Part shown: one piece after another, positions 4,107 to 33,996 of the stretch | Position numbering within the stretch: the stretch's first letter is position 1 | How the letters are laid out: each line of letters starts with the position of its first letter | Source: an uncultured Candidatus Saccharibacteria bacterium | GTDB taxonomy: Bacteria > Patescibacteriota > Minisyncoccia > Phycocordibacterales > Phycocordibacteraceae | Length of the DNA stretch: 33,996 nucleotides | Direction: 5' to 3' | Assembly (NCBI GenBank): GCA_964359685.1 | Contig: CAYHUW010000001.1 | Coordinates: forward strand, 1-33,996 | Notes under the pieces: model-generated | What the model saw: only the letters and a program-made list of their open reading frames with translations | Database searches by the model: none | What the model was told of the DNA's origin: nothing | Made by a program: the position numbers and the translations under genes

Positions 4107-4129
4107 ATTAAAAAACAAAAATAACTTAT

Positions 4130-4441
4130 ATGAACCCAAAATTAGAAAGACTACTCGCTACAATTGAAAGCTTTAGACCGACGATTTATTTTCGCGAAGC
4201 GGCCTTTCAGTCAGATGCCCTTAGAGAGATGGGATATACAGTTGACGGCAGGGGATTCCAAGACCCGATTCCGACAGCAGCCGTGGAAGAACTGACGGAG
4301 ATATGTGGTTTATGCTCCGGCACGGGCGGCGTACGAGCAGGCGGACCGCAGGCCACGTGGGTCGGCGTACGACAGAGTGGAATACCGTGCGACGCGTGCC
4401 ATGGCTTAGGACGTGCGTTGAAGCAGGGACGGGGCTCTTAA
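4130..4441 (+). CDS. small protein with DnaJ-type zinc-finger motifs
   Basis: 103 aa. CGLCSGTGG and CDACHGLG match the CxxCxGxG repeats of the DnaJ cysteine-rich domain. Confidence 0.55.
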   Translation: MNPKLERLLATIESFRPTIYFREAAFQSDALREMGYTVDGRGFQDPIPTAAVEELTEICGLCSGTGGVRAGGPQATWVGVRQSGIPCDACHGLGRALKQGRGS

Positions 4442-4471: not shown

Positions 4472-7420
4472 ATGGCGGACGGAGAGAAAAGCGATGTAGC
4501 CAAGCGGGCCGAGCCTACGCAGAAATCTGCTACGGCGGTCAGGGAGGAAGCGATACTCGCTTTTTGGAACGAGCGCGGGATTTTTGAAAAAACTCTCGCG
4601 AAGGACGCACCGAAAGGCGAGTACGTTTTCTACGACGGTCCGCCGTTTGCGACCGGCTTGCCGCACTACGGGCACGTCGTCGCTTCCGTTATTAAAGACG
4701 TCATACCGCGCTACTTCACAATGCGCGGGTACCATGTGCCGCGCGTGTGGGGCTGGGACTGCCACGGATTGCCGATAGAGAACATCGTAGAAAAAGAACT
4801 CGGCTTCAAGCATAAGAAAGAAATAAAAGAATTCGGCGTAGCGAAATTCAACGAAGCGTGCCGCGAGCGCGTTTTGACCTACGCCTCCGAGTGGGAGAAG
4901 GTGATTCCGAGAATCGGCCGCTGGGCCGATATGAAAAATGCATACCGCACCATGGACAAAACGTTCATGGAAAGCGTGTGGTGGGTGTTTAAGTCAATCT
5001 ATGACAAAGGACTGGTGTACGAGGATTACCGCTCCATGCACGTCTGCCCGCGATGCGAAACGACGCTCTCCCAGCAGGAAGTTTCCGAAGGGTATAAGGA
5101 TGTAAAAGATATTGCGGTAACGGTTAAATTTAAATTAAAGAATCCGGAGAAAATCGGTCTCTCGGGGGATGTGTATATGCTTGCCTGGACGACGACGCCG
5201 TGGACTCTGCCGGGGAACGTCGCGCTCGCCGTACACTCCGATATCGTCTATTCGGTAGTTAGAATCGGGGAAGAGGTTGTGATACTTGCGAGCGAGAAAC
5301 TCCCGATGCTCGGTGAGCGTGAGAAAAATCTTCTGAAAGAGGTACAAGGTGCGGACCTCGTCGGGCTTGAATATGAACCTCCGTTCCCGTACTACAAAAA
5401 TGATACGACTCTTAAGAATCGTGAAAACGGATGGAAGGTGTACCACGCTGATTTCGTAACGGCGGAGACGGGCACGGGAATTGCGCATGAAGCGCCCGCG
5501 TTTGGTGCGGATGACTGGGAACTTCTGAAAAAAGAAAATCTGCCGTTTGTTCAGCATGTCGCGTACGACGGCACAATGAAACCGGAAGTCACGGCATTCG
5601 CGGGGATGGAGGTGAAACCGCGTTCGGATGACGACAAAATCCGCCTCGGCACGGATATCGCCGTTCTCAAATATCTGCAGGAGAATAATCTGTTTTTCGC
5701 GAAAGAAAACATCACTCACGCGTATCCGCACTGTTGGCGGTGCGACACGCCGCTTTTGAACTACGCAACCTCTTCGTGGTTTGTGAACGTTACAAAAATC
5801 AAAGAGGGGATGCTCAGAAACGCACAATCAATCAACTGGTCGCCCGAACATGTAAAAGAGGGAAGGTGGGGACAGTGGTTGTCGGGCGCGCGCGACTGGT
5901 CTATCTCACGCCAGCGGTTCTGGGCGAGCGTCATTCCTCTGTGGGTGTGCGAGACATGCAAAGCAAAGCGGGTGTTCGGAAGTGCGCTTGAGCTTGAAAA
6001 AGCGAGCGGGAAGAAAGTAGACGATTTGCATAAACACATTGTTGACGAAATCACCGTATCTTGCGAATGCGGCGGCACCATGCGCCGTATTCCTGATGTT
6101 TTAGATACCTGGTTTGACTCGGGCTCCATGCCCTACGGAGAAAAGAACTATCCGTTTGTGAACAAGGAATCGTTTGACCAGACGTTCCCCGCGCAATTTA
6201 TCGCCGAAGGTCAGGACCAGACGCGCGCGTGGTTTTACTATCTCCATGTCTTGGCGAGCGCGCTTTTCAATAAGCCCGCGTTTCAGAACGTCATCGTAAA
6301 CGGCATCGTTCTTGCCGAAGACGGGAAGAAAATGTCCAAGAAACTTCAGAACTACCCCGATCCGATGAAAATCGTAGACACGTACGGCGCGGATGCCCTG
6401 CGGTACTACCTCCTCTCATCCCCGGTGGTACAGTCGGAAAATCTAAGTTTTGCGGAGAGCGGGGTTGATGAGGTGCTGAAGAAAAATATCAACCGTCTGG
6501 ATAACGTCGTCGCTTTTTACAAACTCTACGAAGACGGTACGAAGCGCGGAGCGGAGAGCGGAAATATTCTTGACCGGTGGATTCTCGCGCGCCTGAATGA
6601 ATTTCTTGCCGAAACGACTCACGGATATAACGAATACAAACTTGATAAAGCGGTACGTCCGCTCGCGCTTTTTGTTGACGATTTGTCCGTGTGGTATCTG
6701 AGACGAAGCCGCGATCGTCTGAAGAACGAGGGGGATGATAAAAAAGCCGCGCTTGCGACCTTGCGGCACATTCTCTACACGCTCGCCGCCGCCGTTGCCC
6801 CCGCGATGCCGTTTTTGGCGGATGATATATACCGAAAAGTAAAAGAGAGTGACGACCCCGAAAGCGTGCACTTGTGTAGCTGGCCGTATAAAGAGCCGGC
6901 GTTCTTTGAGCGGGTATTCGGCGGCGGTACAAAAACCGAAGGTCTTATTTCCGATATGGCGGAGGTCAGAAAAGTAGTTTCTCTGGGACTTGAGAAGCGT
7001 TCGGCGGCAAACATAAAAGTAAGACAGCCCCTGTCCGAGGTTCGGATACAGAGCGCCCTACTCAAAAATAAACACGACCTCATAGACCTCATCCGCGATG
7101 AACTCAATGTAAAGCGTGTGGCGGTTGACCCTACAATGGATAATGACATTGAACTCAACACGGAATTGACGGCTGAGTTAAAAGAAGAAGGGATGATACG
7201 TGACGTGCTCCGGTTTGTGCAGGACCTGCGGAAACAGGCGGGCTTCAGTCCGAAGGACCGGGCAATCTTGCGTATTTCCCCGAAAAACAGGATTTTCGTG
7301 GAAACGCACTGGACCGCGCTCGCAAAAACAGCGAATCTCGTGCGTTTTGAAGAAGGGGAGGCGGGCTCTGAACTTGTCGTGGATGGTGTGACATTTACAT
7401 TCAATGTCGAGCGGGCATAA
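4472..7420 (+). CDS. ileS: isoleucine--tRNA ligase
   Basis: 982 aa. Contains PHYGHVV (HIGH), KMSKK (KMSKS), DWSISRQRFWA, and the editing-domain and Zn-cluster regions. Confidence 0.95.
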   Translation: MADGEKSDVAKRAEPTQKSATAVREEAILAFWNERGIFEKTLAKDAPKGEYVFYDGPPFATGLPHYGHVVASVIKDVIPRYFTMRGYHVPRVWGWDCHGLPIENIVEKELGFKHKKEIKEFGVAKFNEACRERVLTYASEWEKVIPRIGRWADMKNAYRTMDKTFMESVWWVFKSIYDKGLVYEDYRSMHVCPRCETTLSQQEVSEGYKDVKDIAVTVKFKLKNPEKIGLSGDVYMLAWTTTPWTLPGNVALAVHSDIVYSVVRIGEEVVILASEKLPMLGEREKNLLKEVQGADLVGLEYEPPFPYYKNDTTLKNRENGWKVYHADFVTAETGTGIAHEAPAFGADDWELLKKENLPFVQHVAYDGTMKPEVTAFAGMEVKPRSDDDKIRLGTDIAVLKYLQENNLFFAKENITHAYPHCWRCDTPLLNYATSSWFVNVTKIKEGMLRNAQSINWSPEHVKEGRWGQWLSGARDWSISRQRFWASVIPLWVCETCKAKRVFGSALELEKASGKKVDDLHKHIVDEITVSCECGGTMRRIPDVLDTWFDSGSMPYGEKNYPFVNKESFDQTFPAQFIAEGQDQTRAWFYYLHVLASALFNKPAFQNVIVNGIVLAEDGKKMSKKLQNYPDPMKIVDTYGADALRYYLLSSPVVQSENLSFAESGVDEVLKKNINRLDNVVAFYKLYEDGTKRGAESGNILDRWILARLNEFLAETTHGYNEYKLDKAVRPLALFVDDLSVWYLRRSRDRLKNEGDDKKAALATLRHILYTLAAAVAPAMPFLADDIYRKVKESDDPESVHLCSWPYKEPAFFERVFGGGTKTEGLISDMAEVRKVVSLGLEKRSAANIKVRQPLSEVRIQSALLKNKHDLIDLIRDELNVKRVAVDPTMDNDIELNTELTAELKEEGMIRDVLRFVQDLRKQAGFSPKDRAILRISPKNRIFVETHWTALAKTANLVRFEEGEAGSELVVDGVTFTFNVERA

Positions 7421-17638: not shown

Positions 17639-18262
17639 ATGTCATTCCCTACCATTGCTCAAACCCCGTCTACGCGCTTTAGTATAGGAGTGCAGGACGA
17701 TTTTCGTACTCTTTCCGATGAGGCGCTTTTGGAAGTATCGGTCAAGAAACCGAGTGCTTTTGAGGCGATTGTAGCGCGCTATCAGTCGCAGTTCCTCTCC
17801 CGTGCTCAGGCGGTCTTGCGGGACCGCGACCGAGCCGAGGACGTGGTGCAGGAAACATTTGTCAGGATTTACCGTTTTGCTCCGCGCTTTAACGGTGAGC
17901 AGGGGAACTTCCGTTCCTGGTCACTGACGATTCTCATGAATGTCGCGCGCACACACTATTCAAAAACCGCGCGCGATCGCGGGCATACGGCACCATTGGA
18001 GCCGGAGCACTATGAATCACTCGCGGACAACAGTATCCACGCGAAAGAGGGGAATGAGGCATATGCAAAAGAAGTGATGGAGAAAGCGCTCGCCCGCGCG
18101 CCAAAAGAAACGGCTGACATTTTGAAATTGGCTTTCATAGAAGGACTTCCGCACGCGGAGATTGCCGAAAAGCTCGGCATATCAACGCCGGCGGTCAAAA
18201 CGCGCGTGCATCGCGCAAAGGCGGAACTGCGGACCATTATCAACGAGAACAATATTTTATGA
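17639..18262 (+). CDS. ECF-type RNA polymerase sigma-70 factor
   Basis: 207 aa. Region 2 is present (DRAEDVVQETFVRIYRF), as is the region 4 HTH (LPHAEIAEKLGISTPAVKTRVHRAKAEL). Confidence 0.85.
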   Translation: MSFPTIAQTPSTRFSIGVQDDFRTLSDEALLEVSVKKPSAFEAIVARYQSQFLSRAQAVLRDRDRAEDVVQETFVRIYRFAPRFNGEQGNFRSWSLTILMNVARTHYSKTARDRGHTAPLEPEHYESLADNSIHAKEGNEAYAKEVMEKALARAPKETADILKLAFIEGLPHAEIAEKLGISTPAVKTRVHRAKAELRTIINENNIL

Positions 18263-18387
18263 ATCCCGTTAGAGGGCAAAACATGTTACTGCGGCATTTA
18301 TATCAAAGTAAGCACTACGTAGGTCGGAGTCTCATTATTTCTAACTTTGTACGGACACCGCAGGTGTCCTACCTCTAACGGGATGAA
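18260..18387. mobile_element. 120-bp MITE-like element (TIR TCCCGTTAGAGG) with TGAA target duplication
   Basis: TGAA|TCCCGTTAGAGG (18264-18275) ... CCTCTAACGGGA (18372-18383)|TGAA. The termini match those of the GIY-YIG cassette at 20138-20417. There is an internal hairpin GGACACC-GCA-GGTGTCC. Confidence 0.75.
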
Positions 18388-18700
18388 AACCGACAAGCAG
18401 ATAACTGAAGGAATTATGCGCCGTGTGTACGGAGTGTATTTTATGCGCCGGCTTTCGCATCCTGCTGTGCGTCTCGGGGTGTTTCTTGCGCTACTTCTCT
18501 CGCTCCGCGAATTGGTGTGGGTTTCGCGTGTATTTGAAAATATGTCTCACAAAAACGGTGTCGTTGAATTCGTTCAGTACGGCATCTCTGCATTTGCCGG
18601 TACTGAGTTCATTGTGCAGCTCGTTGTCCTTATGGGTGCGTTCATTTTCGCCTACAGTATCAGAGACCTTTTCGGTCTCAGACAACCGCAATTCGCATAA
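18383..18700 (+). CDS. small membrane protein, candidate anti-sigma partner of the ECF sigma
   Basis: 105 aa starting at ATG 18383 (MKTDKQITEG...), with two predicted TM segments. The position downstream of an ECF sigma gene suggests the role. The ATG is rebuilt from the last A of the element plus the duplicated TG. Confidence 0.55.
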   Translation: MKTDKQITEGIMRRVYGVYFMRRLSHPAVRLGVFLALLLSLRELVWVSRVFENMSHKNGVVEFVQYGISAFAGTEFIVQLVVLMGAFIFAYSIRDLFGLRQPQFA

Positions 18701-18701
18701 C

Positions 18702-18730
18702 AAAAAAGCCCCGCACAAGCGGGGCTTTTT
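18702..18730. terminator. bidirectional rho-independent terminator
   Basis: AAAAAAGCCCCGC, ACAA loop, GCGGGGCTTTTT. It lies between convergent genes, the membrane protein (+) and recA (-). Confidence 0.8.
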
Positions 18731-19762
18731 CTATAGTCCTTCCGCCAGTTTGGCGCGGATCTGTTTCAGAAGGTCGTTCGCGATTGGTTTGTTTTCCCTC
18801 AGGAACGTGCGGGTGGCGTCGTACCCGACCGCGAGTTTTTGTTCTCCCATTTTGTACGTGGAGCCGCTTTTCGCCACGAGGCCGAATTTTTCTCCGAGCG
18901 CAATCAACTCGCCCTCGCGGGAAATGCCCTCGTTGTACATCAGATCAAACTCGGTAGCCTTGAACGGTGCCGCCACCTTGTTTTTTACCACCTTCACCCG
19001 CACGCGTCCGCCCACTACTTCTTCGCCTTTCTTAATCTGCGCGATACGGCGGATATCAAGACGCACGGATGTGTAGAACTTCAGCGCCTTGCCGCCGGGC
19101 GTTGTTTCGGGATTGCCGAACATCACGCCGATTTGCATACGGATTTGGTTGATGAAAATCACCACTGTTTTTGAACGCGCAACGATTGCCGTCATTTTGC
19201 GAAGTGCCTGCGACATCAGCCTGGCCTGGCGTCCGACGTGCTGTGCACCCATGTCGCCTTCAATTTCCGCCTGAGGCGTAAGCGCGGCGACTGAGTCAAT
19301 AACAATCACATCAATCTTTCCTGAGCGAATCAAAGACTCCGCAATGTCCAGGGCCTGTTCTCCCGTGTCCGGCTGCGACACCAGAAGATCATCAATTTTT
19401 ACGCCGAGACGCTTCGCATATTCCGGGTCAAGCGCATGTTCCGCATCTATAAACGCACACACGCCGCCTTTTTTCTGCGCTTCCGCGGTGATGTGGAGGG
19501 AAAGAGTCGTCTTACCCGAAGATTCAGGACCGAAAATTTCTATAATGCGACCGCGGGGGACTCCGCCGATTCCGAGCGCGGCATCAAGTCCGATGGAACC
19601 CGTCGGGATAGCGTCAACGCCCGTTTTCGGGCGCATACCGAGCGTGGTTATCGCTTCGTCACCGAATTTTGTTTTGATTGAGGCGATTGCGTCGTCTATC
19701 GCGGTTTTTTTATCAGAGGAGGGTGCCGGTCGGGGTTCTTTTTCAGTTTTCTTCTTCGCCAT
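18731..19762 (-). CDS. recA: recombinase RecA
   Basis: 343 aa. Contains GPESSGKTT (Walker A), [10 protein letters not shown] and the L1/L2 loop regions. Confidence 0.97.
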
Positions 19763-20138
19763 AATTCGTGGTTGTTGTCGCTTGGGCTATAACAAAGGTA
19801 ATTGTTTTTGTAATGGTTCGGCCGAAACGGTCGCGACCGACTGCCGTGACTGCAGTATACCCTTTAGGGTACGCGCGCATAACTTCAAAACTCCCGTCCT
19901 CGTCAACGGCAACCTCGTCACCGTTTATGGTGAGGTAGGAAACCCGCTCAGTGTCGCCGTATAAAGCCGTTAAGCCGTTTTTCGGAGCGTACGAGAGCGT
20001 CAATGTCGGACCCCTAAGGTACGGGTACGCGGCAAAGAGGGCATACCCGAGAATGAAGAGGACGGCAAACGCCCCACCGGCTATGCTCAGTGTTTTTCTG
20101 CCGTCGCTCTCCCCGCCGATATTTTGGGGGAGTTTCAT
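19743..20138 (-). CDS. single-pass membrane protein, hypothetical
   Basis: 131 aa with a TM helix ([23 protein letters not shown]). The start ATG overlaps the GIY-YIG stop (ATGA), and the 3' end overlaps the recA start by 20 nt. Confidence 0.6.
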
Positions 20139-20421
20139 CCCGTTAGAGATAGGAAACGCTTCAGTCTGGTTTTCAAAAAGCGTTTACCTGGTCCCGATTT
20201 AAGATATAACTCTCTCGACCTTGCATCCTGCTCATTTTTGCACGATTCATAATAGATGAGTTCGTATGGGCCACGTTTTCTAGTCCACGTGCTTTTGTCC
20301 GCTTGGTGTTGAGTGAAGCGTTTCCGTAAATCATTTGTGTACCCGGTGTACCAATAACCACTTTTCATACTTCGAATAATATACACATAGAACCAACGGC
20401 TCGAATCTCTAACGGGATTCA
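20134..20421 (-). mobile_element. TIR-bounded GIY-YIG cassette with TGAA target duplication
   Basis: On the plus strand: TTCA|TCCCGTTAGAGAT (20138-20150) ... ATCTCTAACGGGA (20405-20417)|TTCA. The 13-nt inverted repeats are perfect and the flanking 4-nt repeats are direct. The element body is 280 bp. Confidence 0.75.
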
Positions 20422-20422
20422 T
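20135..20422 (-). CDS. GIY-YIG nuclease family protein (small stand-alone URI-domain type)
   Basis: 95 aa. Contains FYVYIIRS...GYWYTGYTNDLRKRFTQH and ELIYYE...R.RE..LK, which fit the GIY-YIG core. It has ATGA overlaps with both neighbouring genes. Confidence 0.85.
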   Translation of the reverse strand: MNPVRDSSRWFYVYIIRSMKSGYWYTGYTNDLRKRFTQHQADKSTWTRKRGPYELIYYESCKNEQDARSRELYLKSGPGKRFLKTRLKRFLSLTG

Positions 20423-21105
20423 TCCACTCCTTCGGTGTCGGTGCTCTTGCCCGACACCGTCAATACATCCCGCGGACGTGCGCCGTCCGCGGGGCCGATG
20501 ACACCCCGCTGCTCAAGAATGTCCATGAGCCGCGCCGCTCTCGCGTATCCGATTCTGAGTTTTCTCTGGAGGTACGACGTGGATGCTTTCCCCGCCTCCT
20601 CTACCGTCTGTTTTGCTTCTTCAAACAAGTCGTCTTCCGCCTCGTCGTCTTCAAGAGACGCGGAGAATATCGGGTTCGGCGTCTCCGACGTCGTGCCTGA
20701 AAGCGCAATGCCGTCAACCGAGGGTTCGTTGTTTTTCCGTATGTAGTCAACAACCGCCTTTACTTCATTTTCCGAAATATATGCCGTCTGAATACGGTGC
20801 GGTTTCGGCATGTCCGCCGACTGGTAGAGCATGTCGCCTGCGCCCAGAAGTTTTTCCGCTCCTGCGGCGTCCAAAATGGTGCGTGAGTCAAATTGAGAAG
20901 CGACCTGAAGCGCGATCCTCGCAGGCACGTTCGCTTTAATGAGGCCCGTAATAACATTCACCGACGGGCGTTGGGTGGAAAGGACGAGATGAATGCCGAC
21001 CGCGCGTGACATCTGCGCAAGCCGCACGACCGCCGCCTCCAGTTCCCTCGGATACGTCTGCATGATATCCGCAAGCTCGTCTATAACGATTACGATGTAG
21101 GGCAT
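20419..21105 (-). CDS. ftsK: DNA translocase FtsK/SpoIIIE, C-terminal fragment (Walker B, gamma wHTH)
   Basis: Contains YIVIVIDELADIM, LVLSTQRPSV and the C-terminal gamma domain STSYLQRKLRIGYARAARLMD. The frame stays open upstream to 21189. Confidence 0.85.
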   Translation of the reverse strand: MPYIVIVIDELADIMQTYPRELEAAVVRLAQMSRAVGIHLVLSTQRPSVNVITGLIKANVPARIALQVASQFDSRTILDAAGAEKLLGAGDMLYQSADMPKPHRIQTAYISENEVKAVVDYIRKNNEPSVDGIALSGTTSETPNPIFSASLEDDEAEDDLFEEAKQTVEEAGKASTSYLQRKLRIGYARAARLMDILEQRGVIGPADGARPRDVLTVSGKSTDTEGVE

Positions 21106-21189: not shown

Positions 21190-22596
21190 CTACAAGAGGT
21201 TATAGCGTCGCTCCATCTCTTTAGCCGCCCACTTCAGAGAAATAATAGCCTTCTTCGGGTCGGTAATGACCGGCGTCAGAAGGTGGGGGATGGGGTTGTA
21301 GAGGGTCAGTTCAACCCGTTTCGGGTCAATCATAATAAACCGGAGTGATGCGGGGCCGTTTCTGTAGAGAAGCGATGTGATAAGCGCGTGAATCGCAACC
21401 GATTTCCCCGAGCCGGTAGCGCCCGCGACCAAAAGGTGCGGCATTTTTCCGATATTGGCGAAGTGCGAATTGCCCGCAATGTCGCGGCCTAATGCCACGG
21501 TAAGGGGTTTCTGATCCGTCTGGAATTTTGTGTCGCTTATGAGTGAACCGATTCCGACCGTTGCCTTCTGCGTGTTCGGCACCTCAATCCCCACCAGCGA
21601 TTTTCCGGGGATCGGAGCCTCTATGCGGACAGGCGCGGCGGCAAGCGCCAACTCCAGGTTATTTTGAAGTGCAAGAATTTTCTGAAGGCGCACTCCCTCC
21701 GCGGGCTTCAGTGCGTACCGCGTGACGGTGGGGCCGATAGATACTTCATCCATCTCAACATTGATGCCGAAATTCTGGAGGGTGCGTTTTATCAGGTTCG
21801 CGCTCGCTTTAATGTCGCCGGTGTCGGGTTTTCCGCGGTCGCCCTTCAGGAGGGAAGTCGGCGGCGGATTGTAGGCGCGGTCAACGGGTCTGAATGCTAT
21901 TGCGGAGACCTCCACCTGCGGAATCGGTTCGGGTTTCTTTTCTTTTTTCTGTCGCGAAATTTCGCGGGCGGGCGTTTCCGCGTTGTCTTCGTCTTCCCCG
22001 GCGGTTTCTTCATAGGTATCTTCGTACGCGCCCGTAACGGTGAGTTCTTCTTCCGGTACCGCGGCGTCTTTTCGTTTCAAGAATTCGGGGAAGGCGAGCG
22101 AGGGGAATTTCAAAGGCGTATCAAGCGCCAAAAGCGCACCCACAACCGCGAGTCCCGAGAGGATGATGAATGAAAATACGTAATCAAAAGGGTACAGGAA
22201 GAGCGAGGCGATGAGTTTACCCGCAAGCCCGCCCTGATTTCCTGCAAGCGAGAGAACCGAAATCCCGGACAAAAAGAGCAGAGCGGCTCCGATGACGCGC
22301 GTACCGCCCCAGCCCGTCTCCGGGTTCTGTCTGAAAAAGCCGATAGCGAGCGCAACGAAGACCAGCGGAATTAAAAAATATCCGAGCCCGAAAAGTCCTG
22401 AAGAGCCGAGGGATGTGTAGACCCATTCGCCGAGCCTGCCGCCGATGCCCATCGGAGCCAAAAGAAAGAGAACGGCGACAATAATTGAGAGGACGCCGTA
22501 AATGCTTTTTGCGGTTTCCTGTTTTACGTCGAGCGAGGGGGCTTTGAGGAGAGGTTGGTTCTTTTCCTTGTGCTTCCGTTTCGTGTTTTTCGCCAT
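21190..22596 (-). CDS. ftsK: DNA translocase FtsK/SpoIIIE, N-terminal fragment (TM region, linker, Walker A), ends at an in-frame TAG
   Basis: The likely start is ATG 22596 (MAKNTKRK...). It has four or more TM helices, VAGATGSGKS (Walker A) and KWAAKEMERRYNLL followed by TAG at 21190-21192. Confidence 0.85.
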   Translation of the reverse strand: MAKNTKRKHKEKNQPLLKAPSLDVKQETAKSIYGVLSIIVAVLFLLAPMGIGGRLGEWVYTSLGSSGLFGLGYFLIPLVFVALAIGFFRQNPETGWGGTRVIGAALLFLSGISVLSLAGNQGGLAGKLIASLFLYPFDYVFSFIILSGLAVVGALLALDTPLKFPSLAFPEFLKRKDAAVPEEELTVTGAYEDTYEETAGEDEDNAETPAREISRQKKEKKPEPIPQVEVSAIAFRPVDRAYNPPPTSLLKGDRGKPDTGDIKASANLIKRTLQNFGINVEMDEVSIGPTVTRYALKPAEGVRLQKILALQNNLELALAAAPVRIEAPIPGKSLVGIEVPNTQKATVGIGSLISDTKFQTDQKPLTVALGRDIAGNSHFANIGKMPHLLVAGATGSGKSVAIHALITSLLYRNGPASLRFIMIDPKRVELTLYNPIPHLLTPVITDPKKAIISLKWAAKEMERRYNLL

Positions 22597-22640
22597 AGGT
22601 ATTGTCGTTTTGTATGCGGATTTTATCATGGCAAGCGAGG

Positions 22641-22786
22641 AGCAACATGAAAGGGTGCTTTCATGTTGTCCGAGTGACGCCATGAGAAGCCTACTTACCA
22701 CGGTGAGTGAGGAGCGACGCGAAAGATTTTCTTTCATGTCGTCCGAACGACGCCGTGAAAAGCACCGCTAAGCACGACAGTCGGTG
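22641..22786. repeat. tandem ~73-nt duplication, each unit a hairpin plus a conserved tail
   Basis: CTTTCATGTTGTCCGAGTGACGCCATGAGAAGC (22658-22690) versus CTTTCATGTCGTCCGAACGACGCCGTGAAAAGC (22731-22763). Each is preceded by its complement, CATGAAAG or GCGAAAG. Confidence 0.7.
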
Positions 22787-33308: not shown

Positions 33309-33996
33309 GGTTTTCAAGCTTCCTCGCGGAAGTTTGAAGGGTGTATGGTGGATGCCTTGACTTTAAAAGGCGATGAAGGACGCAGCACGTCTGCGAAAAG
33401 TTTCGGGGAGCTGACGAGCAAGCTTCGATCCGAAAATATCCGAATGGGGAAACCCCTCGTACTTCGTACGAGATCTGTGGAGTGTTCTGCAGATGCGCAC
33501 CTCGGGAAGTGAAACATCTCAGTACCGAGAGGAAAAGAAACCAACAGTACATCTCGGTCTCTGCACAAATTTATTTTGTACAGGGACCGGGATTCGGGAA
33601 TTTCCCTAGTAGCGGCGAGCGAAAAGTAATCAGCCCAAACCGTATCAGCAAGGGTGCGGGGTTGTAAGGCGATGGCGTTCCATTTTATGGAAGAGAAGTT
33701 ATCAAAGATATTGGTAGAAGAATCTGCTGGGAAGCAGAACTCTAAAGGGTAATAGTCCCGTATTCGAAATCAATATCTCTTCTTTGCCGTCGATCTTGAG
33801 TAATCCGAGACACGAATAGCTTGGATGAATCCGCCGGAACTAACCGGCAAGGCTAAATATCTTTAAAGATCGATAGTGAACCAGTACCGTGAGGGAAAGG
33901 TGAAAAGCAGCCCGGAAGGGCGGTGAAATAGATCTGAAACCATATGTTTACAAGGAGTCGAAGCGGTCGCAAGACCTCGCCGGCGGGCCTATTGAA
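33309..33996 (+). rRNA. rrl: 23S ribosomal RNA, 5' domain I (partial, continues beyond the window)
   Basis: Conserved blocks are present in the correct order: GGTGGATGCCTTG, GCGATGAAGGACG, CCGAATGGGGAAACCC, GGGAAGTGAAACATCTCAGTACC, CCTAGTAGCGGCGAGCGAA, GATAGTGAACCAGTACCGTGAGGGAAAGGTGAAAAG and GTGAAATAGATCTGAAACC. Confidence 0.92.

Follow-up and report, generated by a model that had tools for sequence, protein, structure and literature searches.

Very small elements at start codons of candidate phyla radiation bacteria: a probable transposon family and a GIY-YIG nuclease that may move it

Introduction

Why should a gene for a 95-residue GIY-YIG nuclease lie between inverted repeats, its start and stop codons shared with the genes on either side? 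The locus that raises this question occurs in a 33,996-nucleotide (nt) stretch of DNA, here called the window, from an uncultured Candidatus Saccharibacteria bacterium (contig CAYHUW010000001.1). The original prediction, made from the letters of this stretch, was that the nuclease gene forms a cassette bounded by terminal inverted repeats (TIRs) and a duplicated TGAA, placed in the ATGA overlap between ftsK and the next gene, and that a second insert with the same termini lies nearby. We call these elements 1 and 2. Several questions should be addressed. Are the repeats more than coincidence? Do other copies exist? Into what do they insert, and which enzyme moves them?

The best explanation of the whole, to which we give a probability of about 0.75, is that elements 1 and 2 belong to one family of very small DNA transposable elements widespread in the candidate phyla radiation (CPR) or Patescibacteria. 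In the searchable full text of the literature (queries included the TIR sequence, peptide motifs and GIY-YIG transposases; subscription-only texts and ISfinder lay outside this scope) there is no description of the family, and the prediction likewise knew of no account of small stand-alone GIY-YIG genes as junction cassettes. It appears therefore to be an undescribed family, very small, in ultra-small bacteria.

Two inserts with the same ends

Read on the minus strand, element 1 and its borders are GTGGA-ATGAA^TCCCGTTAGAGAT...ATCTCTAACGGGA^TGAA-ACTCC, the carets marking the ends of the element. Its features follow, with TSD for target-site duplication, ORF for open reading frame and aa for amino acids.

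20138 to 20417, minus strand: element 1, a full-length 280-nt GIY-YIG element, the autonomous-type copy, with perfect 13-nt TIRs and a TGAA duplication
20405 to 20417, minus strand: left (5′) TIR, TCCCGTTAGAGAT on the gene strand, coding for N2 to D6 (NPVRD)
20138 to 20150, minus strand: right (3′) TIR, ATCTCTAACGGGA on the gene strand, coding for the final SLTG
20418 to 20421, minus strand: upstream TSD copy TGAA, which gives the nuclease ATG its TG and contains the ftsK stop TGA
20134 to 20137, minus strand: downstream TSD copy TGAA, which gives the nuclease its stop TGA and supplies the TG of the rebuilt ATG of ORF 19743-20138
20135 to 20422, minus strand: 95-aa GIY-YIG nuclease ORF, UPF0213/COG2827 Slx1-like branch by sequence (Pfam PF01541)
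19743 to 20138, minus strand: target gene, a 131-aa membrane-protein-like ORF with its start codon rebuilt by the insertion
20311 to 20325, minus strand: 5′ arm of the subterminal stem, ACGGAAACGCTTCAC region on the gene strand, coding for the invariant LRKRF; 15 nt, 93% complementary
20152 to 20166, minus strand: 3′ arm of the stem, adjoining the right TIR and coding for LKRFL

The perfect 13-nt TIRs at 20138-20150 and 20405-20417, with TGAA on both sides, are as predicted; the program-reported length of 14 nt takes in a flanking A/T pair too. The nuclease ORF spans the upstream to the downstream TGAA, its ATG overlapping the ftsK stop and its TGA overlapping the ATG of ORF 19743-20138, of which the A (20138) is the end of the right TIR. 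That both codons derive from the duplicated target, and that the ORF overlaps both neighbours in this manner, was also part of the prediction and is borne out.

Element 2 reads ATTTTATGAA^TCCCGTTAGAGG...CCTCTAACGGGA^TGAAAACCGAC on the plus strand.

18264 to 18383, plus strand: element 2, a 120-nt non-coding member with the same termini as element 1 and 12-nt TIRs, resembling a miniature inverted-repeat transposable element (MITE)
18264 to 18275, plus strand: left TIR, TCCCGTTAGAGG
18372 to 18383, plus strand: right TIR, CCTCTAACGGGA, its last A (18383) opening the rebuilt ATG of ORF 18383-18700
18260 to 18263, plus strand: upstream TSD copy TGAA, containing the stop TGA (18260-18262) of the extracytoplasmic function (ECF) sigma-factor gene
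18384 to 18387, plus strand: downstream TSD copy TGAA
18353 to 18369, plus strand: 3′ subterminal hairpin GGACAC-CGC-AGGTGTCC, 3 nt 5′ of the right TIR
18383 to 18700, plus strand: target gene, 105 aa, 3′ of the ECF sigma-factor gene

It is a real member of the family with the expected TGAA duplication, though its TIRs have 12 nt and not the 13 nt first assumed. Elements 1 and 2 are not a chance coincidence. The TIR 11-mer TCCCGTTAGAG occurs exactly four times in the window, always at the ends of these two elements, and a motif-free scan (perfect TIRs of at least 10 nt, 40-450 nt apart, with 4-nt direct repeats as flanks) returned them and nothing else in 34 kb.

A family of elements in CPR genomes

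The check for further copies with these termini gave a combined set of at least 163 unique elements, namely the two window copies and 161 from public genomes and metagenomes. Searching one genome per species for the 14-mer ATCCCGTTAGAGAT gave at least 51 TIR pairs; among the matches listed all lie in metagenome-assembled genomes (MAGs) of the CPR (Parcubacteria groups, Saccharibacteria and others), with several copies in some single MAGs, and the unpaired matches in non-CPR genomes are single chance matches. Metagenomes were scanned with CCTATCTCTAACGGGA, which gave 110 further unique elements. Since this query includes no flanking base the TSD statistics obtained from metagenomes are unbiased. 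Viral contigs held 120 matches to the 14-mer, none of them paired; these look like chance and there is therefore no sign of phage carriage. At the protein level there are more than 2000 close homologs of 94-95 aa, the sources named as Parcubacteria or Patescibacteria, and 663 clusters at 50% identity with E ≤ 1e-10, or 6617 with E ≤ 1e-3.

The 277-280-nt architecture of element 1 is found in loci L001, L005, L014, L098, L160, L219, L231, L245 and others. The two homolog loci P0040 and P0006 display the window architecture in unrelated gene contexts, one after a Ham1-like gene and one upstream of ruvX, and read ATGAA^TCCCGTTAGAGAT...ATCTCTAACGGGA^TGAA followed by a gene start. Elsewhere copies also stand after a gap or upstream of a divergent gene. 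Sizes fall into classes of less than 100 nt, about 100-140 nt (the commonest), about 186-199 nt and 274-280 nt, with approximately three short copies to each gene-bearing one. Members of the 186-199-nt class (for example L192 at 1956-2142 and 4110-4295; L145, L164 and L237) have the same ends and hairpin arm position with a longer loop. Element 2 shares its class with 87 other elements of 100-140 nt and has the attributes by which a MITE is recognized: a length below about 300 bp, TIRs, a TSD, no coding capacity, many copies, and ends shared with a gene-bearing form. Short and full-length forms have the ends, an internal stem and the stem position in common. Aligned to the nuclease consensus, the short-copy interiors do not outscore shuffled sequence and show no residual coding similarity, which rules against their being recent deletion derivatives.

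In keeping with the prediction that no transposase is encoded within the element, GIY-YIG is the only ORF and no copy has a transposase. There is no other ORF between such TIRs in 240 loci, no other gene or transposase inside about 175 TIR-bounded elements, and neither a larger composite nor a partner TIR within 4-6 kb of the unpaired ends.

Elements can accumulate at one site. In L017 (5898-6279) three stand in tandem at a single start codon with TGAA between each, and the TIRs of the middle one (about 6023-6154) are variant, TCCCGTAGT...ACTACGGGA, so that a single genome contains several forms of the TIR. In L014 (4715-4733) a solo right TIR (CCTCTAACGGGA plus TGAA) provides the last codons of the upstream gene directly 5′ of a full-length element; it looks like what is left of an earlier insertion that a host ORF has taken in.

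The target is a start codon

Perfect flanking repeats of 4 nt border 102 of the 163 elements, with 5-nt repeats at five and 3-nt repeats at 16. The 4-nt repeats are of 12 kinds (TGAA 63, TGGA 21, TGCG 4, TTCA 3, TGGG 2, TAAA 2, TGAG 2 and five singletons). Because the sequence varies between insertions yet matches within each, the repeats are true TSDs and not part of the element. The 102 reconstructed empty sites give the consensus A^TGRA, the caret here marking the point of insertion, with little information at other positions; A precedes the duplication in 95, followed by T in 100, G in 93, a purine in 94 (A 69, G 25) and A in 93. Of the 102, 63 carry the TGAA duplication first expected and 39 another sequence.

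What does A^TGRA represent? Elements were oriented by their 3′ signature before start codons were counted. An ATG lies across the right junction, made by the final TIR base and the TG of the TSD, in 142 of 163, and an ORF of at least 50 codons begins at that ATG in 130. Nine, all short copies, are on a start codon in the reverse orientation and 24 in neither. As a baseline, the window contains 153 ATGRA sites, and only 10 of them open an ORF of 100 codons or more. Among the 54 elements of the first set, four have an ORF of that minimum length upstream with the duplicated TGA as its stop, two of the four being the window copies. The stop/start overlap originally proposed as the target is thereby replaced by the start codon itself. 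At a few sites (L035, L180 and L183, with left flanks G^TGGA, T^TGGA and G^TGAA) the duplication is preceded by G or T and the rebuilt downstream codon is ATG; a GTG or TTG start has therefore apparently been replaced by ATG.

Empty sites, which the prediction had also proposed to look for, are present in syntenic relatives (L135, L133/L134), located through homologs of the window 131-aa protein, for which an exact look-up gave no entry. Contig L135 has the same gene order as the window (ftsK, small ORF, recA, anti-sigma-like ORF, sigma, efp) with neither insert. The predicted empty junctions of the window are GGAGTGGAATGAAACTCCCC and AATATTTTATGAAAACCGAC, the latter being the window minus element 2 and one TGAA, and the sigma junction of L135 agrees with it, reading AATATTTTATGAAAAGCGAAC. 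There the ortholog of ORF 18383-18700 overlaps the sigma gene by ATGA with no insert. In L133, L134 and L135 the ortholog of the 131-aa gene lies directly 3′ of ftsK with no GIY-YIG gene between, and the orthologous junctions in relatives are without the repeats. The near-identical contigs L131 and L132, from the same population as the window, have both sites filled and so are not informative on this point. The source population is that of Hainich groundwater H51 (ENA ERZ1292623 and ERZ1292627).

The family is mobile by transposition, not by homing. The homing-endonuclease frame in which the locus was first read does not hold, as the insertion sites share no homology and carry variable duplications.

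The nuclease

The only gene of the family encodes a single domain of 95 aa in the window and 84-95 aa overall. Residues 11-76 match Pfam PF01541 with E=1.4e-16 (61 bits against a cut-off of 22.6). By sequence the protein is assigned to the UPF0213/COG2827 group. The closest PDB sequences are 1zg2 (E=4e-11) and 1ywl (E=8e-5); an AlphaFold model with a mean confidence score (pLDDT) of 86 has 1zg2 (BH0048) as top Foldseek match, followed by the structure-specific nuclease Slx1, and the TIR-encoded residues 1-6 are disordered in it. YhbQ of Escherichia coli shares 37% identity with the window protein over 49 residues. Invariant in 23 homologs are Tyr14, Tyr25, Gly27, Arg33, Arg35, His39 and Glu71, which by analogy would be the GIY tyrosine, the YIG Tyr-x-Gly and the arginine, histidine and glutamate catalytic positions. 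The catalytic roles of these residues are taken from I-TevI and UvrC.

MNPVRD at the N-terminus is nearly invariant and FLSLTG at the C-terminus is invariant in the 23 homologs, whereas residues 7-9 are free and Met10 is common. MNPVRD and SLTG are translations of the TIRs and the TIRs are therefore conserved across the family. The ORF is intact in 36 of 37 full-length copies. Pairwise ratios of non-synonymous to synonymous substitution (dN/dS) are 0.16-0.18 at dS of about 1.5, with the same values in the part of the gene that has no known cis element. The ORF is under purifying selection.

That the ORF fills the element end to end is correct for the window copy but is not the universal layout. 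In elements of 276-280 nt the stop codon comes from the duplication (TGA; TAA in L257), and the ORF opens either with the host ATG that was captured, reading in frame across the left TIR, or with an internal Met near codon 10. The window nuclease depends on the captured ATG because position 10 is Trp. A 278-nt subfamily has its own Met at nt 18, a TAA inside the right TIR and the C-terminus ...RLGASYL, and is found also at targets such as TGGA, TGCA and CTAA, which supply no stop codon (L149, L203, L221, L041, L095, L097 and others). The proteins P0144, P0147 and P0152 are long fusions with an N-terminal GIY-YIG domain that continue past ...FLSL(T/P).. and enter either the gene downstream or a further TIR (ARPVRG); lost stops or tandem elements gave rise to them, and they are a source of mis-annotation.

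The TIRs change together with the protein. Three divergent homologs, L386, L387 and L388 (49-56% identity), lie on ATGAA or ATGAG start codons with the same downstream ATGA overlap. The TIRs of L386 and L387 are changed identically at both ends, to TACCGTTAGAGTT and TCCCGATAGTGTT, respectively, each element standing at an ATGAA start codon, and those of L388 are changed to TCCCGTTAAAAC and TCTCGTTAAGAC. More distant is a Verrucomicrobia homolog, P0266 (L136-L144), of 87 aa, which ends in ...YLTG and whose termini, CCCCGTGAGATA/TATCTCACCGGG, are related. It lies inside a tyrosine-recombinase gene, named 'integron integrase', which it interrupts after ...LLGHS with no clear duplication visible, and adjoins 23S_rRNA_IVP (four-helix-bundle) genes in varying arrangements. 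At these loci gene callers yield fusion proteins of 394-400 aa.

A conserved subterminal stem

Short copies contain a hairpin of which the 3′ arm ends 3 nt before the right TIR, with the consensus ACGGAAA-loop-TTTCC-TAT-TIR. In both size classes the 5′ arm is found 85-95 nt in from the left end. The stem covaries, with 16 arm variants (GGAAA/TTTCC, GGAAG/CTTCC, GGTCG/CGACC, GGACA/TGTCC, GCAAA/TTTGC, GGTCA/TGACC and others), and an in-register complementary stem is present in 114 of 147 elements against 3.9 expected with permuted arms. Full-length copies possess the same two arms at the same positions, about 164 nt apart, forming a stem of up to 15 bp. The 5′ arm of element 1 is placed like that of other copies, at nt 92 counted from the left end, and pairs in the RNA fold.

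In single-strand folds of both window elements the TIR stem closes and the hairpin stacks beside it (z = -3.05 and -3.39). The stem formed by the TIRs in mRNA may loop the element out, leaving the rebuilt ATG within reach of the original ribosome-binding site. Phage T4 gene 38, where a hairpin bridges the Shine-Dalgarno sequence and the start codon, is a precedent for loop-out translation. In the RNA fold of 20115-20445 (minus strand) GGAGU, 5′ of the captured ATG and likely a ribosome-binding site, pairs with ACUCC just past the rebuilt ATG and lengthens the TIR stem; this pairing may be a coincidence of the site. Neither element matched Rfam at the gathering threshold or at E≤1, on which basis a group I or II intron, or a described RNA family, was rejected.

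Which enzyme moves the elements?

We marginally favour the GIY-YIG nuclease as the mobilizing enzyme. It is the sole cargo of the elements, is intact and selected, and diverges together with the TIRs; it is of a structure-specific type beside a conserved hairpin, in a window with no transposase or integrase. A multimer of the enzyme would recognize the TIRs and the hairpin, cut both the element ends and the target in staggered fashion, and mobilize short copies in trans, a scheme whose chances we put a little better than even. Strand joining would be carried out by the enzyme itself or by host repair, and a circle or tandem junction of the element would read CTCTAACGGGATGAATCCCGTTAGAG.

The insertions themselves show that the target is A^TGRA and that 4 bp are duplicated (3-5 bp in some copies); surviving copies lie nearly always on the start codon of a gene and mostly in the same direction as that gene. 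Because the final A of the right TIR meets the TG with which the duplication opens, the host gene gains a new ATG. For the 277/280-nt subfamily, to which the window copy belongs, the old ATG becomes the start of the nuclease gene and the duplicated TGA its stop, overlapping the rebuilt ATG; by such capture the nuclease borrows the expression signals of the host gene and passes ribosomes on by ATGA coupling. Since the target is restored every time, tandem stacks of elements build up at a single start codon. The machinery would recognize about 5 nt (ATGRA). Insertions at ATGRA inside genes would be purged by selection since the 284 or 124 added bases shift the frame, and such purging, with near-neutrality at start codons where ATG is rebuilt, would explain the concentration on start codons. 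Two variants of this scheme were discarded. A sticky-end cut-and-ligate model fits the orientation bias, but at non-TGAA sites it would leave flanks that do not match, and perfect TGGA/TGGA pairs are in fact frequent (21). Resolution of a cruciform by an enzyme like Slx1, considered as the excision step, would by reasoning give hairpin-capped breaks and no excision.

The elements might instead be moved in trans by an unlinked CPR transposase with the nuclease as cargo, be it a selfish enzyme favouring retention of the element or a useful, hitch-hiking DNA-damage nuclease like YhbQ. The excess of short over gene-bearing copies would suit such an arrangement, as would a protein that is a bare nuclease domain and the annotation of the E. 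coli homolog as a stationary chromosomal DNA-damage nuclease; the combination of TIRs and 3-5-bp TSDs is typical of DDE-type insertion sequences. We nonetheless consider it unlikely. No other gene or transposase was seen among the roughly 175 TIR-bounded elements and none of the latter kind is encoded in the window, the nuclease ORF is interlocked with the cis elements in that both TIRs and both stem arms are coding, all but one of 37 full-length copies are intact under purifying selection, and divergent nucleases have matching divergent TIRs. Homing, in which the nuclease would cut empty ATGAA junctions and the cassette would be copied by recombination-dependent repair, is closest to the original framing and is disfavoured. 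The superfamily does hold classical homing endonucleases, there are weak matches both to the model for group I intron endonucleases and to a family of phage homing endonucleases, and insertion at A^TGRA is sequence-specific. However, the sites are in dozens of unrelated genes with no shared flanks and so no template for homology-directed copying, the duplications vary by site and match at both ends of each copy, which homing does not yield, the I-TevI/Seg DNA-binding domain is missing (95 aa against about 250 aa), and the nearest folds are Slx1 and UPF0213 rather than I-TevI. We regard homing as very improbable.

Site-specific recombination would make the element an integron-like cassette handled by a tyrosine or serine recombinase, with TGAA a 4-nt crossover core and not a duplication. 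In our own reading of the sequence the junction CTCTAAC-GGGA-TGAA-TCCC-GTTAGAG does resemble the inverse-core and core boxes of attC (RYYYAAC / GTTRRRY); some flanks differ by one base (TGAG/TGAA, TGGA/TGAA) as mismatched cores would, and the Verrucomicrobia relative is within a tyrosine-recombinase gene among small cassette-like ORFs. A fixed core is at odds with the 39 of 102 perfect 4-nt flank pairs that are not TGAA yet match (TGGA 21, TGCG 4, others), the window has neither an attC-sized site nor an integrase, and the recombinase gene in Verrucomicrobia is interrupted by the element and does not serve it. This leaves recombination with hardly any probability. An integron gene cassette was rejected on the same grounds, the absence of an integrase in the window and flanks that vary and match pairwise, as judged without a formal attC model.

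The case for the nuclease as mobilizing enzyme has its own difficulties, which weigh against it. We know of no GIY-YIG enzyme that catalyses strand transfer, and this one is a bare catalytic domain with a basic C-terminal helix. Characterized GIY-YIG nucleases leave 1-2-nt 3′ overhangs, not 4-nt staggers. Elements of MITE type generally depend for their movement on enzymes encoded at other loci; the transposase negatives cover TIR interiors, flanking kilobases and the window and not the whole genomes, in which an unlinked transposase may be encoded. E. coli K-12 yhbQ, a single chromosomal gene, was rejected as a hidden copy as there are no TIRs around it, and the protein family is therefore not mobile as a whole. 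No residual coding similarity ties the short copies to the nuclease gene, so derivation by deletion is not established. A perfect 3-5-nt duplication is missing in 40 of 163 elements, and a TSD length of 3-5 nt is looser than in many transposase families. Lastly, the strong orientation bias of 130 against nine does not follow from the rebuilding of ATG, which either orientation would achieve equally well; it may reflect asymmetric target recognition or selection on mRNA.

In its fullest form our proposal is that an Slx1-like GIY-YIG nuclease of 84-95 aa would itself be the transposase, representing a new catalytic class in prokaryotes, with a unit of about 280 bp that would be the smallest autonomous DNA transposon known and a host-forgiving insertion at A^TGRA start codons, in which ATG is rebuilt and translation of the element is coupled to the host gene. 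To this we give even odds.

Comparison with known systems

In behaviour the elements resemble insertion sequences accompanied by MITE derivatives; a catalytic role for the nuclease is what we infer. They share TIRs, 3-5-bp TSDs, multiple copies, empty sites and the coexistence of gene-bearing and short non-coding forms with the same ends with insertion sequences and MITEs (IS3, IS5, IS1380 and IS630-type; Correia, RUP, Nezha). Among the hallmarks of a TIR transposon, the TIRs, site-dependent TSDs and differences in occupancy are all present; a transposase of known catalytic class is not. They differ from insertion sequences in that the only gene is GIY-YIG rather than of DDE, DEDD, HUH, serine, tyrosine or Cas1 type, in landing precisely at start codons and rebuilding ATG, and in size. 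The smallest known insertion sequences are of about 700 bp and the gene-bearing element, at about 280 bp, is less than half of that.

The elements are not homing endonuclease genes, IS200/IS605 elements, integron cassettes or introns. Proteins of UPF0213/COG2827 (YhbQ; Bacillus halodurans BH0048, 1zg2; Enterococcus faecalis EF2693, 1ywl) and the Slx1 domain have the same fold and catalytic motifs, and the CPR proteins depart from them in the TIR-encoded N- and C-terminal residues and the mobile-cassette setting. With I-TevI, I-BmoI and the T4 Seg/Mob homing endonucleases there is in common a GIY-YIG domain on selfish DNA placed with little harm to the host. Those enzymes have one long cognate site, whereas our elements use a 5-nt motif at many genes and have TIRs and TSDs with no separate DNA-binding domain, intron or homology-dependent copying. 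The score against TIGR01453 is 17.6 bits for a cut-off of 56, the two-domain architecture of about 200-270 aa that is classical for homing endonucleases is not seen, and the family lacks the single cognate homologous site and duplication-free insertion of classical homing. IS200/IS605 and their PATE/REP-like derivatives are similar in small size, subterminal hairpins, insertion at 4-5-nt motifs and non-autonomous derivatives, but have no TIRs or TSD and employ the HUH enzyme TnpA, in contrast to the perfect TIRs and variable duplicated flanks here, with no HUH gene. Rickettsia palindromic elements, likewise small palindromic repeats that survive because host genes stay functional, insert in frame inside genes and have no known mobilizing enzyme; the present elements occupy the start codon and have a gene-bearing master form. 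In the same host group, GIY-YIG ORFs occur in non-intron insertions of CPR rRNA genes that are said not to look like homing (PMC11270868), and that paper mentions no inverted or direct repeats.

The surrounding window

Window ORFs of at least 140 aa are housekeeping genes only, and among the window genes examined there is no transposase or integrase. The housekeeping genes include four aminoacyl-tRNA synthetases, recO, ssb, rpsF, rpsR, efp, recA, ftsK and rplJ. The start of a 23S rRNA gene occupies 33325-33996 and is cut by the window end. An in-frame TAG at 21190-21192 (minus strand) divides ftsK into ORFs 21190-22737 and 20419-21105 (...RRYNLL-stop-GHSVRDI...). The codon is GAG in the same-population contig L132 and encodes Glu in relatives, so the TAG is a G-to-T variant or an assembly or sequencing error and not recoding; it is unrelated to element 1. 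Between the convergent ORF 18383-18700 and recA, at 18640-18840, there are weak, sub-threshold Rfam matches to leader and small RNA families on both strands, most likely reflecting a bidirectional terminator hairpin.

Implications

Whatever the enzyme that moves it, the family explains the very common annotation of small 'GIY-YIG nuclease family protein' genes in Patescibacteria. Fusion proteins arise where gene callers run these ORFs on through TIR-encoded residues. The family also offers a reading of recent genome dynamics in organisms that cannot be cultivated. The mode of insertion is a new low-harm strategy, in which a start codon is occupied and regenerated and ribosomes are handed on through an ATGA overlap. 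If it is true that the nuclease moves the element then this would be a minimal new class of transposase, a single domain of some 90 residues that works on 13-bp ends and a hairpin. Such simplicity would allow reconstitution and dissection of the system, which might also serve as a compact sequence-specific insertion tool.

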